Of a stretch of DNA of 64,000 nucleotides, positions 447 to 4,835 are shown in pieces. Positions within the stretch are counted from its first letter, which is position 1, and every line of letters begins with the position of its first letter. Source of the DNA: Alphaproteobacteria bacterium (GTDB lineage: Bacteria; Pseudomonadota; Alphaproteobacteria; MPNO01); NCBI GenBank assembly GCA_964291675.2, contig OZ219866.1, positions 768,001 through 832,000 of the forward strand, in the 5' to 3' direction. Both the position numbers and the translations under genes were made by a program. The notes below the pieces were generated by a model. The model saw nothing but the letters and a program-made list of their open reading frames with translations, ran no database searches and was not told the DNA's origin.

Positions 447-472
447 CCGGGCGCCCACACGAGGATCGCGCC

Positions 473-1117
473 ATGCCCAATATCCGCATGCTCGACATCG
501 ACGAGCTCAAGGCGGGCAAGCTCCGCCCGCTGGTCAACAAGGCGCTGCGCCACCGCGCGCCCGACCCCGCCTTCCACGCCATGCTGGGCCACAGCCCGGA
601 CGTCGCGCGCACGATGTATCTCGCCTGGGGCGCGGTGTTCAACACCGGGCGGATCGACCACAAGCTCAAGGAAATCATCCGCGTCCAGCTCTCGCGGATG
701 GCCGCGTGCCGCTATTGAGGCAATGTCAGGTCTGCTTCGGCGAAGCAGCAGGGACTGACGGAAGAGACCATCGACGAGGGCATCGAATCCCATGCGTCAA
801 GCGACCGCTTCACCCCGGCCGAGAAGGTCGCGCTGCGCTACTCCGAGCTGATGGGGAGCGCGCCGGACAGGGTCGATGCCGCCCTCTACGCGGCGCTCGC
901 GGAGCACTATTCGGTCGAGGAGATCGTCGAGCTCGGCGCCTTCGTCGGCTTCAACGTCGGCTACCACACCTTCTTCGGGACGCTCGACTTCTACCCGATG
1001 TTCACCCCCGACGGTCGGCTTGTCGACCAGGCGGAGTCGCGGCGGATCTACGGCGAGACCCCGGTCTCGCTCAACCGGGGAGCGCTCGCGCGCGCCACCG
1101 GGGAAGCCGCCGAATGA
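473..1117 (+). CDS. AhpD/carboxymuconolactone decarboxylase-like selenoprotein (214 aa, Sec82 in C-R-Y-U)
   Basis: ORFs 473-718 and 851-1117 share a frame and are separated only by TGA 716-718. Read-through (GNVRSASAKQQGLTEETIDEG...RFTPAEK.ALRY) aligns without gaps to the downstream paralogue. A hairpin follows the TGA. Confidence 0.85.
725..759 (+). promoter_or_regulatory. Bacterial SECIS-like hairpin 3' of the UGA
   Basis: GTCAG(725-729)/CTGAC(755-759) lower stem; CTGCTTC(732-738)/GAAGCAG(742-748) upper stem; apical loop GGC starts about 20 nt after the UGA. Confidence 0.7.
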
Positions 1118-1662
1118 GCCTCCGCGGCACGCTCCCGCCGGTGCCTCGCGCGGCGATCGACGACCCGAAGCTCCAGGCGCTGATCGCGCGCTCGGAAGAG
1201 ACCGGCATCGCGGACTCGCGGTTCGTCCGGCTGCTCGCGCATGTGCCGGGCTATGCCGAGGCGCTGCACGACGCGCTCGACCGCTCGCTGATGGAAGGCG
1301 CGGTCGATCACAAGCTCAAGGAGATCGTCCGCGTCCAGCTCGCCCGGCTCGCCGGCGATCCCTACTTTTCCGCCTTCCGCTCGAAGCGGGCGCTGGAGGA
1401 CGGGCTAACCGAGGAGCGGATCGAGGCGGGGAGCGGCGATTTCGAGACTGACGCGCGCTTCACCCCCGCCGAAAAATGGGCGCTCCGCTACGGCTGGCTG
1501 ATGTACCGGGAGCCCGGGAAGGTCGACAAGGCGTTCTACGACGAGGGCAAAGCGCACTACTCCGAAGCCCAGATCGTCGAGCTCGGCGCCTTCATCGCCT
1601 TCCACTACGGCATGCAGATCTTTCTCGGCACCCTGGACCTGCCCGAAGAAGAAGGTGGCTGA
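1114..1662 (+). CDS. AhpD/CMD-like protein lacking the redox CxxC (DPYF instead), 182 aa
   Basis: ATGA overlap with the upstream stop; DHKLKEIVRVQLARLAG, GLTEERI, RFTPAEKWALRY and HYSEAQIVELGAF mirror the upstream gene. Confidence 0.85.
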   Translation: MSLRGTLPPVPRAAIDDPKLQALIARSEETGIADSRFVRLLAHVPGYAEALHDALDRSLMEGAVDHKLKEIVRVQLARLAGDPYFSAFRSKRALEDGLTEERIEAGSGDFETDARFTPAEKWALRYGWLMYREPGKVDKAFYDEGKAHYSEAQIVELGAFIAFHYGMQIFLGTLDLPEEEGG

Positions 1663-3964
1663 GACGCGGGTCGAGGATCCGCCGCTGCTGCGCGGGCGGG
1701 CCCGCTTCGTCGACGACATCCATCTGCCCAAAACCCTGCACGCGGCGTTCCTGCGCAGCCCGCTTGCGCATGCCGGGATTGCGGGCATCGACAAGAGCGC
1801 GGCCGAGGCGGCGCCTTGCGTGCACGCGGTGTGGACGCTCGACGATCTCCGCCCCCATCTCGCCGCCCACCGCCTCGTCGTCGGCCTGCCGAGCCCGTCC
1901 TACCGCCAGCACCGCGACCGGCCGCTGCTCGCCGACGGCGAGGTCGTCCATGTCGGCGAGGCGGTGGCGATGGTCGTTTCCGCCTCGCGCTACGCGGCCG
2001 AGGACGCGGCGACGCTGGTCGATGTCGCCTACGAGCCGCTCCCCGCCGTCGCCGACTGCCGCGACGCGCTGGCGCCGGAGGCGCCGCCCGTCCATCGCGG
2101 CGCCGACCACAACCTGCTCGCCGAGCTCGCCATGGAATTCGGCGACGTCGAGGCGGCGTTTGTCCGCGCGCACCGCATCTTCGCCCTGAATCTCTCCGTC
2201 CATCGCGGCGGCGGCCACTCGATCGAGGGGCGCGGCGCGCTCGCCCGCCACGACCCGGTCGACGACCTTCTGACGCTGTGGAGCTCGACCCAGACGCCGC
2301 ATGCCGGGCGCGACGCGATCGCCCGCATGCTGGGCCGCGGGACCCGCCGCGTCCGCGTCGTCACCCCGGCGGTCGGCGGCGGGTTCGGCCCCAAGCTCGT
2401 GACCTACCCGGAAGAGGTCGCCGTCGCGCTCGCATCCGTGCTGCTCGACCGGCCGGTCAAGTGGATCGAGGACCGGCGCGAGCACTTCGTCGCCAGCACC
2501 CAGGAGCGCGACCAGCACTGGGACATCGAGGCCGCGTTCGACACCGGGGGCCGCATCCTCGGGGTCCGCGGGACCATGCTGCACGATCACGGCGCCTATA
2601 CCGCGCGCGGCGCCAATCTGCCCTACGAGTCGGCGCTTACCGTGACGCTGCCCTACGACGTGCCGGCCTACCGGCTCACGGCCCGGGCGGCGCTCACCAA
2701 CAAGGTGCCGGTCACCCCGGTCCGGGGCGCCGGTCACCCGCAGGCGGTGTTCGCCATGGAACGCCTGCTGGATGCGGCGGCGGACGGGCTCGGCATCGGC
2801 CGCGCGGCGATCCGCGAACGCAACCTGATCGGCCCCGAACGCATGCCCTGCACCCGCCCGCTGGAGACCCGGGGCGGGCGCAAGGTGGTGCTCGACTCGG
2901 GCGACTATCCGGGCTGCATGAAGGCGGCGCTCGATGCCGCGGACTGGGACGGTTTTGCCGCCCGGCGCAAGGCGGCGAAGATGCTCGGGCTCGCGCGCGG
3001 CATCGGGCTTGCCAATTTCGTCAAGGGAACCGGGCGCGGGCCGTTCGAATCGGCCGCCGTCGCCATCGACCCGGCGGGCACGGTGTCGGTCGCTTCCGGC
3101 GCCGCCGCGATGGGCCAGGGGATCGAGACCATGCTCGCCGGCATCGTCGCCGAGACGCTCGGCTGCGACCGCGATCTGGTCAGGGTCACGGCGGGGGATA
3201 CAGGCGCGATCGCGCTCGGCATTGGCGGGTTCAACAGCCGCCAGGCGGTGACCGCGGGGAGCTCGGCCTTCAACGCAGCGCGCCGGGTACGCGACAAGGC
3301 GCTCGCCGTCGCCGCGCATCTCCTGGAGGCGGCGCAGGAGGATCTCGAAATGGCGGGCGGCGAGGTCCGGGTGCGTGGCGCGCCCGATCTCAGCGTCCCA
3401 CTCGGCCGGCTCGCCGAGACCGTGGGGGGCACGCCGGGGGTGACGCTGCCGGCGGGGATCGCGCCCGGGCTCGCGGCGGACGAATACACCGTGCTCGACG
3501 ACATGCCGTTCGCCAATGGCAGCGCGGTCGCGGAGGTGCAGATCGATCGCGAGACCGGGCACGCCGCCATCCATCGGCTCACGGTCGCGCACGATTGCGG
3601 GCGCATCGTGAACCGGGCGATCGTCGAAGGCCAGATCGTGGGCGGCGCGGCGCACGCCGTCGGCAACGCGCTCTATGAGTGGATGGGGTTCGACGACGAC
3701 GCCCAGCCGCTCACCGTGACGCTCGCCGACTACCTGCTGCCGGGTTCGACCGACGTGCCGAGGGTCGCTACGGTGCACATGGAATCGCCGAGCCCGCTCA
3801 ACCCGATCGGGGTCAAGGGGGTCGGCGAATGCGGCACCGTCCCCACCGCCGCCGCCATCGCCGCCGCGATCGAGGATGCGCTCGGCCTGCCCGGCGGCAC
3901 CGTGCAGCGCGTGCCGCTCGCCCCCGCCGACATCGGGAGGCTTGCCCGTGACCATACGCTTTGA
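1655..3964 (+). CDS. Xanthine dehydrogenase/CoxL-family molybdopterin-binding large subunit
   Basis: RVEDPPLLRGRARFVDD, VGGGFGPK, PVRGAGHP, MGQG, GVKGVGE motifs. Confidence 0.92.
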   Translation: MAETRVEDPPLLRGRARFVDDIHLPKTLHAAFLRSPLAHAGIAGIDKSAAEAAPCVHAVWTLDDLRPHLAAHRLVVGLPSPSYRQHRDRPLLADGEVVHVGEAVAMVVSASRYAAEDAATLVDVAYEPLPAVADCRDALAPEAPPVHRGADHNLLAELAMEFGDVEAAFVRAHRIFALNLSVHRGGGHSIEGRGALARHDPVDDLLTLWSSTQTPHAGRDAIARMLGRGTRRVRVVTPAVGGGFGPKLVTYPEEVAVALASVLLDRPVKWIEDRREHFVASTQERDQHWDIEAAFDTGGRILGVRGTMLHDHGAYTARGANLPYESALTVTLPYDVPAYRLTARAALTNKVPVTPVRGAGHPQAVFAMERLLDAAADGLGIGRAAIRERNLIGPERMPCTRPLETRGGRKVVLDSGDYPGCMKAALDAADWDGFAARRKAAKMLGLARGIGLANFVKGTGRGPFESAAVAIDPAGTVSVASGAAAMGQGIETMLAGIVAETLGCDRDLVRVTAGDTGAIALGIGGFNSRQAVTAGSSAFNAARRVRDKALAVAAHLLEAAQEDLEMAGGEVRVRGAPDLSVPLGRLAETVGGTPGVTLPAGIAPGLAADEYTVLDDMPFANGSAVAEVQIDRETGHAAIHRLTVAHDCGRIVNRAIVEGQIVGGAAHAVGNALYEWMGFDDDAQPLTVTLADYLLPGSTDVPRVATVHMESPSPLNPIGVKGVGECGTVPTAAAIAAAIEDALGLPGGTVQRVPLAPADIGRLARDHTL

Positions 3965-4835
3965 GGAGATCGGCGAGCGGCTGCGCGCCTTCCGGCTCGG
4001 CTCGGGGCTGAGCGCCGACGAGATCGCCGCCCGCATCGGCATCTCGCGCACCGCGCTCTACCGCTTCGAGAAAGGCCGGGTGGCGAAGATCGACGCGCTG
4101 GAAAAGCTCGCCGAGCTGCTCGACGTGTCGCTCCCGACCCTGCTCGGCGTCGGCGTCGAATATGTCGGCTCGGCGGTCAGCTTCTTCGAGCGGCTGCGCC
4201 AGATCGAGGCGACGGCGGAACACATCGTCGTGCTGGCGGGCCCGGTCTCCTTCCTGCTGTCGAGCGACGACTTCGTCGACACGCTGGAAGACGTGCTCGG
4301 CGAGAGCATCCCGGATGGCGGCGACGGGCGCGCCCGCGGCCTCGACCAGCTGGGCGAGCTGATGTCCATCCTGCGCCGGCGCAAGGAGACCTATCGCGAG
4401 CGCCGCCCGGGCGTGCTCAACCTGATCTCCGAGGCGGAGATGGGGCGGTTCCTGAGGAATGGCCTGGTCGGCCGCCTCGACCTGCCATCCGCCGTTCGCG
4501 ACGAGCGGCTTGCGCTCGCGCGCCGCGAGGCGCTGCATCTGGTGCGGCTGATGGAGGACGAGCCGATCGGCGTCCAGATCGGCCTCGTCCCCTCGACCCT
4601 GCCGCCGACCAGCTTCCAGATCTTCCGCCAGCCCGGCCGCAGGGTGCTGACGCTGAGCCCGTTCCGCCTCGGCGAGCAGCCCAACATCCACGCCGGGGTG
4701 GCGATGATCACCTCGGCACCCGAGGCGCTGGCGCTGCACGAGAAGACGGCGGAAGATTTGTGGCGCCGTGCCCGCAAGGGCCCGCGGGCGGCCGCCGCCA
4801 TGCGCGACCTGATCTCCCGCCACGCCCCGGGCTGA
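3948..4835 (+). CDS. XRE-family HTH transcriptional regulator with large C-terminal domain
   Basis: GTG 3948 after GGGAGG; IGERLRAFR..SGLS.DEIAARIGISRTALYRFEKG helix-turn-helix. Confidence 0.85.
   Translation: MTIRFEEIGERLRAFRLGSGLSADEIAARIGISRTALYRFEKGRVAKIDALEKLAELLDVSLPTLLGVGVEYVGSAVSFFERLRQIEATAEHIVVLAGPVSFLLSSDDFVDTLEDVLGESIPDGGDGRARGLDQLGELMSILRRRKETYRERRPGVLNLISEAEMGRFLRNGLVGRLDLPSAVRDERLALARREALHLVRLMEDEPIGVQIGLVPSTLPPTSFQIFRQPGRRVLTLSPFRLGEQPNIHAGVAMITSAPEALALHEKTAEDLWRRARKGPRAAAAMRDLISRHAPG

Follow-up and report, generated by a model that had tools for sequence, protein, structure and literature searches.

The window analyzed here is a stretch of 64,000 nucleotides, C2:768001-832000 of a 4.8 Mb genome in 2 contigs. 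As seen from the sequence and its translation, positions 473-1117 of the forward strand form a single frame of 214 codons, and the sole interruption of this frame is the TGA at 716-718, which is codon 82. Translation table 11 yields two ORFs from the same interval, 473-718 (81 aa) and 851-1117 (88 aa). The first-pass annotation of this DNA had proposed that the ORF track cuts one gene in two and that this TGA is the lone interruption, and both points were confirmed from the ORF list and the frame. The gene starts at ATG 473 and ends at the terminal stop TGA 1115-1117. The choice of ATG 473 is supported by the N-terminus M-P-N-I, which was near-invariant in an alignment of 34 orthologues. The read-through product is predicted to contain ...A-A-C79-R-Y-U82-G-N-V-R-S..., with selenocysteine (Sec, U) at the position of the TGA. 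A paralogue follows directly, with its ATG and the selenoprotein stop overlapping in ATGA. The start of a Mo-hydroxylase gene in turn overlaps the stop of the paralogue. The features of the locus are as follows.

461..465, + strand: Shine-Dalgarno-like GAGGA, read from the sequence, 7 nt ahead of ATG 473
473..1117, + strand: predicted AhpD/CMD-fold selenoprotein gene, 214 aa, with C79-x-x-U82; assigned by PF02627, an AF2 model and Foldseek
707..709, + strand: TGC codon of Cys79, the proposed resolving Cys of CxxU and the sole Cys of the protein; invariant in 34/34 orthologues and aligned with the first Cys of CxxC in PA0269 AhpD and in Bmp8
716..718, + strand: UGA almost certainly read as selenocysteine U82; TGA in 82/82 distinct orthologues, Cys in 4/4 distant homologues, and the second Cys of CxxC in solved AhpD-family structures
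732..748, + strand: candidate bacterial SECIS on comparative evidence; 7-bp stem (732-738 with 742-748) and GGC apical loop (739-741), 13 nt past the UGA
1114..1662, + strand: paralogue without the redox motif (G-D-P-Y-F vs A-C-R-Y-U; no Cys in this genome's copy), 43-44% identity to the selenoprotein
1655..3964, + strand: Mo-hydroxylase large subunit (xanthine dehydrogenase/CoxL family) with Pfam Ald_Xan_dh_C, MoCoBD_1 and MoCoBD_2; best NCBIfam score 715.6 vs a cut-off of 950 bits

The TGA had been placed by the first-pass annotation inside a C-R-Y-TGA version of the AhpD-type redox motif, and we found that it does align with the second Cys of CxxC. The same annotation had described the read-through product as aligning without gaps to the adjacent paralogue. 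This was correct for the stretch that it quoted, but over the full length gaps appear at the two ends. The stops of the neighbouring genes at 371, 1117 and 1662 are all TGA. Since TGA is an ordinary stop in three neighbouring genes, the code is not reassigned here.

Conservation of the TGA was investigated at two depths. Within the order, 41 genomes were searched, the own genome included, and 16 orthologues with 75-100% identity were found: one in the own genome, one in each of the 11 other species of the genus, and four among the family's 8 other genomes. TGA stands at codon 82 in each of these 16 orthologues, all of which have at least 75% identity. A wide scan of one genome per species across 185,579 species gave 253 relatives, and the best 80 of these 253 were kept. 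TGA was found at codon 82 in 80/80 of the kept loci, 77 by pattern and 3 by inspection. The 96 loci from both searches were pooled; 14 were duplicates of the same genomes, and the codon was the identical TGA in all of the 82 distinct sequences that remained. Among the best 80 of the 253 relatives, the orthologues with TGA span MAGs of Defluviicoccus, other Rhodospirillales, Hyphomicrobiales, Burkholderiales, Nitrospinota, Acidimicrobiia, Chloroflexota and Tectomicrobia. The closest relatives are Defluviicoccus with 91-94% identity. Within the same 80, many loci come from marine Rhodospirillaceae MAGs, and sponge-associated and marine MAGs are frequent among the carriers of the gene. Many holders of the gene are sponge and marine symbionts that live among organobromine compounds.

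The residue at position 82 differs between close and distant homologues. The four best stop-free matches (L037-L040), with 32-35% identity, read K-C-E-[FY]-C-G-N-Q-R-S, and Cys stands opposite the TGA in 4/4 of them. Judged from the alignment, this is a classical Sec/Cys pair. The close relatives showed no Cys form in the 82 distinct sequences (best 80 of the 253 relatives in the wide scan). This apparently Cys-less status of the close relatives may be a new detail.

The stretch behind the TGA carries a coding signal up to 1117, as had been claimed. Among the 16 close orthologues, the variable sites at codon positions 1/2/3 numbered 25/14/59 over the 81 codons upstream of the TGA and 33/32/91 over the 118 codons downstream of it. 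Downstream of the TGA, synonymous changes equalled or outnumbered non-synonymous changes in 14 of 15 pairwise comparisons; the exception was L035 (24 vs 25). The persistence of third-position variation past the TGA indicates that this stretch is translated. The TGA was also present in public data from other studies, where contigs of 4 independent runs (2 DNA and 2 RNA-library) span 716-718. Among the differences listed for these contigs there was none at 716-718, and polymorphisms at 724 and 728 were listed; a further 104 differences lie outside this list. As contigs, the 4 runs show that the TGA-bearing sequence is present in DNA and RNA libraries and do not speak to transcription or its level.

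We then considered the RNA just past the TGA. A bacterial SECIS is expected to be a stem-loop just past the UGA with a G in a small apical loop, and the hairpin at 732-748 has this layout. In an alignment of 64 distinct 57-nt sequences, 92.0% of cells were paired in the register of this hairpin, as against 29.7-70.7% when the 3' partners were slid by 1-3 columns. The pair of columns 21-35 was U-A in 49 sequences, C-G in 15 and unpaired in none of the 64. Its 5' member is the synonymous third position of a Ser codon, and a change of its 3' member converts Gln to Arg or Gly. The coupling of a synonymous Ser site with a Gln/Arg/Gly site is hard to attribute to constraint on the protein. When these columns were left out of the DNA tree, the U-A/C-G state was seen to switch at least 3-4 times along it, and 3 of the switches were forced by well-supported branches. 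Among the eight pairs in the 64 sequences, this type of change on both sides was found in one alone, and four pairs never vary. U731 is able to pair with 749, by wobble or A-U, in some relatives.

Codon usage pointed to the same segment. Conserved degenerate codons were defined as those whose amino acid is kept in at least 95% of sequences (n=68). Codons 88-91 (734-745, the upper stem and loop) were the sole 4 of these 68 with a single codon in all 82 sequences. The mean codon entropy was 0.16 bits for codons 87-91 vs 1.13 bits at the other conserved codons. The 12-nt core does not vary, even between Alphaproteobacteria and MAGs of Chloroflexota and Actinomycetota. As a negative control we took the corresponding part of the paralogue: R-S-x-x-A is kept in its protein, yet six Arg codons and three Ser codons are used freely. 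There was no hairpin at the equivalent place in the adjacent paralogue, and no comparable hairpin after the Cys codon of the Cys-type homologue.

The thermodynamic signal was small. The stability of the single sequence was not significant against shuffles (z = -1.30 for 47 nt and 0.12 for 75 nt). The conserved hairpin alone gave -8.1 kcal/mol, and the minimum-free-energy fold of the own sequence gave -15.3 kcal/mol in a register shifted by 3 nt. The 3-nt-shifted register was rejected, as it pairs in just 70.7% of cells and double changes are absent from it (slide +3). The structure proposed by RNAalifold for the 64 sequences pairs the UGA itself with the loop; it is weak (-3.0 kcal/mol), has no covariation and was likewise set aside, and the hairpin at 732-748 was not recovered by this program. 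A search of Rfam gave no relevant family for the region at E <= 10. Because the energy is weak whereas covariation and synonymous invariance are strong, the case for a SECIS is comparative and not energetic. By these comparative sequence data, the 732-748 hairpin is under RNA-level selection and is a candidate SECIS.

A Sec codon calls for the machinery to decode it, and the first-pass annotation had named selA, selB, selC and selD as the genes to be sought. All four were found in the genome.

C2:2840351-2841709: selA, 565.5 bits, above the curated cut-off
C2:2838438-2840312: selB, 455.7 bits over model positions 1-578 of 581, above the curated cut-off
C2:2837316-2837407: selC, tRNA-Sec, 76.7 bits, above the cut-off; called tRNA-SeC by ARAGORN, with anticodon tca (UCA)
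C2:1869115-1870017: selD, 314.4 bits, above the curated cut-off

The other Rfam match above the cut-off in the tRNA-Sec search was tRNA-Ser. The same genome carries a second CxxU gene, with a similar 6-bp stem and a G-rich loop 11 nt past its UGA.

The protein belongs to the AhpD/CMD superfamily and lies outside every curated subfamily tested. Pfam CMD (PF02627) matched residues 45-123, spanning the TGA, with 44.2 bits vs a cut-off of 23. No NCBIfam model reached its cut-off. The best NCBIfam match was NF053654, YciW-related (seleno)protein, with 62.6 bits vs a cut-off of 310 over residues 34-161. The peroxidase-related enzyme model TIGR01926 scored 33.4 bits vs 81.8, and the AhpD core domain model TIGR00778 scored 16.3 bits vs 27.8; of the latter motif, the E-x11-CxxC part is present with Sec for the second Cys and the His part is absent. 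An AF2 model based on 34 orthologues had a mean pLDDT of 78.7 and a pTM of 0.75, and the mean pLDDT around the active site (residues 81-90) was moderate, at 69. Foldseek gave 11 matches at E <= 0.001, and those listed have the AhpD/CMD fold (AhpD PA0269, Bmp8 and several 'peroxidase-related' proteins). Both the AF2 model and Foldseek thus agree with the all-helical AhpD fold. E67, C79 and U82 were invariant in 34/34 orthologues, and in the sequence profile E67-x11-C79-x-x-U82 aligns on E-x11-C-x-x-C of PA0269. The His that stands four residues past the second Cys in PA0269 is R86 here. R86 was invariant in 34/34 orthologues and is also found in the Cys-type homologues. Since His is replaced by an invariant Arg, AhpD-type chemistry is not simply transferable to this protein.

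The paralogue accompanies the selenoprotein gene throughout the family. Of 80 loci, 79 have a match to it immediately downstream, one of these 79 being cut by the contig end, and at the lone locus without it the sequence ends ~100 nt past the selenoprotein gene. Where the gene model is clean (33 loci), 0-37 nt separate the selenoprotein stop from the paralogue. The motif [AGKRQ]-D-x-Y-F is conserved in the paralogue in place of C-x-Y-U. No second CMD match was found in the flanks of the four Cys-type loci (L037-L040). Among 120 database relatives listed, nine entries of 319-371 aa cover just the C-terminal half of the query. The 3/3 long ORFs examined (P0007, P0009 and P0015) are fusions, in which the C-terminal half of the selenoprotein, from just past the TGA, is followed by a linker and the paralogue domain. 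These fusions indicate that in some lineages the selenoprotein and the paralogue are encoded as one polypeptide. P0007, P0009 and P0015 come from SAR324 and Betaproteobacteria MAGs. Adjacency, the start/stop overlap and fusion together suggest that the two proteins probably form a hetero-oligomer with one active subunit and one inert or structural subunit.

The remaining gene context varied among lineages. Within the family clade to which the window belongs, 11 of the 14 loci have a full-length Mo-hydroxylase gene next to the pair, as against 0 of the 66 remaining loci, so its link to the gene pair is lineage-specific. Clustering of the neighbours of 80 loci gave CoA-transferase III (26), class-III aminotransferase (23) and FAA hydrolase (22), each of them lineage-specific. 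No neighbour other than the paralogue was conserved family-wide among the 80 clustered loci, and therefore gene context yields no function.

Most of the 120 database relatives listed are C-terminal pieces of 118-151 aa, more than 100 in all, named 'hypothetical protein' or 'carboxymuconolactone decarboxylase family protein'. From 14 of the 120 listed entries that were examined, the 7/7 family members that span the site have W at position 82. The simplest explanation for the W entries is that metagenome gene callers translated TGA with a Trp code. The expectation that standard annotation would miss the gene was thus borne out, as the collections hold mainly C-terminal fragments or entries with W at the Sec site.

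The interruption could be taken at face value, with the UGA terminating an 81-residue N-terminal fragment and perhaps a separate, internally started C-terminal protein behind it. Table 11 yields exactly those two ORFs, and the many C-terminal fragments in public collections look like such a protein. Bacterial Sec insertion is inefficient, and for this reason some truncated product is likely in any case. However, the TGA lies inside the Pfam domain, the predicted fold and the redox motif, so that each half alone is an incomplete domain. The fragments begin at differing Met residues, and an internal start is not conserved. The TGA and the frame are kept in 82/82 sequences across phyla, and the site is Cys in distant homologues. 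Termination as the whole explanation is therefore very improbable. Even less credit can be given to a nonsense mutation in a pseudogene, or to a sequencing or assembly error for TGC/TGT. It is true that a single-base change turns TGC or TGT into TGA. However, the same TGA recurs in every one of the distinct sequences, which come from independent assemblies, purifying constraint acts downstream of it, and the 2 DNA and 2 RNA-library contigs that span 716-718 have no difference there among those listed. The suspicion of a sequencing error is contradicted by these runs, and this explanation as a whole is effectively refuted by the comparative data, leaving it almost no probability.

Read-through could also occur without Sec, by near-cognate insertion of Trp or Cys or under a locally reassigned code. 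The seven full-length entries with W at the site are in line with this, as their gene callers evidently saw an open frame under TGA=Trp. However, these entries come from metagenome gene callers and would be best explained by an automatic TGA=Trp table. TGA ends three neighbouring genes, the genome has a complete Sec system, and a hairpin selected at the RNA level follows with the spacing that SelB would require. At the aligned position, homologues have the catalytic Cys and not Trp. This type of read-through is accordingly rated as a shade less probable than termination, and both are highly unlikely. Selenocysteine insertion at codon 82 is the reading that we prefer.

Taken together, 473-1117 is very probably a genuine selenoprotein gene, with Sec insertion itself inferred from sequence comparison, and TGA 716-718 is almost certainly a selenocysteine codon. 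The proposal of a 214-aa, Sec-containing, AhpD-like CxxU protein was supported by conservation of the UGA, by Cys at its position in distant homologues, and by the hairpin, the Sec machinery and the fold. In the mechanism that we propose, the hairpin at 732-748 would recruit SelB carrying Sec-tRNA(Sec), and UGA 716-718 would be decoded as Sec rather than as the chain end. The product would hold a C79-x-x-U82 redox centre. In M. tuberculosis AhpD, the second Cys of CxxC is the attacking nucleophile. As U82 aligns with this second Cys, it would be the attacking residue here. By analogy with AhpD-family CxxC, the U82 selenolate may attack an oxidised substrate, which could be a peroxide, a partner protein oxidised to a sulfenic acid or disulfide, or some other electrophile. 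C79 would then resolve the adduct to an intramolecular selenylsulfide, which would be recycled by cellular reductants. The selenoprotein gene would be translationally coupled to the paralogue, which has lost both redox residues.

A more specific role can be raised as a doubtful possibility. The selenoprotein and the paralogue might form an obligate heteromeric selenoenzyme that reduces a small-molecule electrophile, for example by reductive dehalogenation, instead of serving AhpC-type peroxide defence. A dehalogenase-like role is possible but unsupported; it is considered because the closest characterised sequence relative is a thiol-dependent debrominase, because His is replaced by Arg, and because sponge and marine MAGs are frequent among the holders. 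If true, the protein would be the equivalent, in bacteria and with Sec, of the Cys enzyme Bmp8, and its function would parallel that of the Sec-dependent deiodinases.

The practical outcome is a corrected annotation. One predicted 214-aa selenoprotein should take the place of two fragments here and in the genomes of at least 80 other species. The sharply defined core of the candidate SECIS could seed a covariance or HMM model with which pipelines may call the subfamily. The conserved pairing with a redox-dead paralogue, fused in some lineages, suggests a heteromeric architecture. The family is that of an abundant environmental selenoprotein, and the finding is a modest one, of value for annotation and for the paired-paralogue architecture.

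Several characterised proteins can be set beside this one. The best structural match was AhpD PA0269 of P. aeruginosa (PDB 7XW1 and 2IJC), with a target-normalised TM of 0.81, an rmsd of 2.3 Å and 26% identity. Unlike the present protein, PA0269 has Cys at the Sec position and His at the position of R86, has 145 instead of 214 residues, and has no paired dead paralogue. The best PDB profile match was the debrominase Bmp8 (PDB 6OHI and 6OHJ), a CMD homologue of bromopyrrole biosynthesis, with an E of 2.6e-11 over residues 37-160; PA0269 came next. Bmp8 is of similar size (195 aa), and its C-M-Y-C aligns with C-x-Y-U. However, it has an identity of ~22% and an rmsd of 6.5 Å, is a Cys enzyme, and belongs to a biosynthetic cluster that is absent here. 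M. tuberculosis AhpD is a two-repeat protein that works with AhpC in lipoamide-dependent reduction. Its attacking second Cys fits the Sec at the second position of the present motif, whereas no ahpC is adjacent here. The NF053654 YciW-related (seleno)proteins share the AhpD superfamily and have Sec forms, but the score of the present protein is far under the cut-off and it is not a member.

Selenoproteins of this general kind were described earlier, in agreement with the first-pass annotation, which had pointed to Sec-for-Cys AhpD/CMD-like proteins of environmental bacteria. A 2005 study of the Sargasso Sea reported CxxU selenoproteins that were AhpD-like (COG2128, 27 sequences) or had a CMD domain (4 sequences) (PMC1088965). 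The 2008 GOS study reported 299 sequences of 'AhpD-like 1' (COG2128) with 902 Cys homologues, as the fourth most abundant prokaryotic selenoprotein family, and 70 sequences of 'AhpD-like 2' (pfam02627) (PMC2398784). A 2026 review distinguishes four AhpD-related CxxU families and ties its 'AhpD-like protein' to TIGR01926 (PMC13188914), and BSepDB has an AhpD-like family page (PMC13326102). According to the accessible portions of these sources, the AhpD-like CxxU selenoprotein as a kind has therefore been known since 2005.

As those sources describe them, the AhpD-like and CMD-like selenoproteins of marine metagenomes resemble the present one in the fold family, in CxxU, in a UGA followed by a small hairpin with a G in the apical loop, and in the Cys of distant homologues. 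A difference is that the 'AhpD-like protein' of the review is tied to TIGR01926, which the present protein misses (33.4 vs 81.8 bits). The present subfamily may well be among these published marine families, beside which it was set by description only; an overlap is possible because many of the loci found here come from marine Rhodospirillaceae MAGs. A redox-dead paralogue or fusions were not found mentioned for AhpD-like selenoproteins in the available portions of PMC1088965, PMC2398784 and PMC13188914, whose supplements may list members. In the literature, no experimental study of a CMD-type selenocysteine protein was found, as judged by titles, and none was found that links Defluviicoccus with a selenoprotein. 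Set against the accessible portions of the published accounts, the features that may be new are the position of the protein below every NCBIfam cut-off, the Cys-less close relatives, the 12-nt SECIS core shared across phyla, the replacement of His by Arg, and the paired or fused inert paralogue.

The neighbours of the selenoprotein gene and of its inert paralogue in the window were examined, and three ORFs were recorded.

75-371, + strand: PIN-domain (VapC-like) ORF, directly upstream of the selenoprotein gene
1655-3964, + strand: molybdenum hydroxylase large subunit (CoxL/XdhA family), whose start overlaps the stop of the paralogue
3876-4835, + strand: HTH regulator, the next + strand ORF after the hydroxylase gene

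The PIN-domain ORF was kept in place in 7 of the 11 genus-level loci (L041-L051). The molybdenum hydroxylase fell under every NCBIfam cut-off, the top model being 'CODH_aero_grp5' (715.6 vs 950 bits).

The tree of the selenoprotein gene, read for the best 80 of 253 relatives (L041-L120), was discordant with the taxonomy of the record titles. One Chloroflexota sequence and one from a Nitrospinaceae MAG were nested inside marine Rhodospirillaceae, and Acidimicrobiia clustered with a Nitrospinaceae MAG. The two-gene module could have been transferred horizontally, or binning errors could account for this discordance. The database protein P0022 (181 aa, 54% identity overall) combined a selenoprotein-like N-terminal half with the motif G-D-S-Y-F and a C-terminus as in the inert paralogue. 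P0022 may represent either a single-gene intermediate or a recombinant.

A second gene of the CMD family in the same genome, G000, contains an in-frame TGA; it and genes for selenocysteine incorporation all lie on contig C2.

C2:1413345-1413974 (345-974 of extracted locus L121), - strand: second CMD-family gene, PF02627 match on the read-through
C2:2837316-2841709, - strand: selA, selB and tRNA-Sec, arranged head to tail
295-2589 of extracted locus L010, + strand: selD-bearing ORF of 764 aa, with Pyr_redox_2, AIRS and AIRS_C

In the second gene, the motif around the TGA was C-P-F-U, the read-through product matched PF02627 at 50.5 bits, and a stem of 6 bp, closed by a 5-nt loop rich in G, started 11 nt 3' of the UGA. 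One-TGA matches to this C-P-F-U type were also seen in many relatives when 41 genomes of the order were searched.

The selA, selB and tRNA-Sec genes form a single cluster. A pyridine nucleotide-disulphide oxidoreductase makes up the N-terminal half of the selD-bearing ORF, and selD its C-terminal portion. This ORF is of the Ndh-SelD fusion type, which the GOS paper (PMC2398784) mentions.
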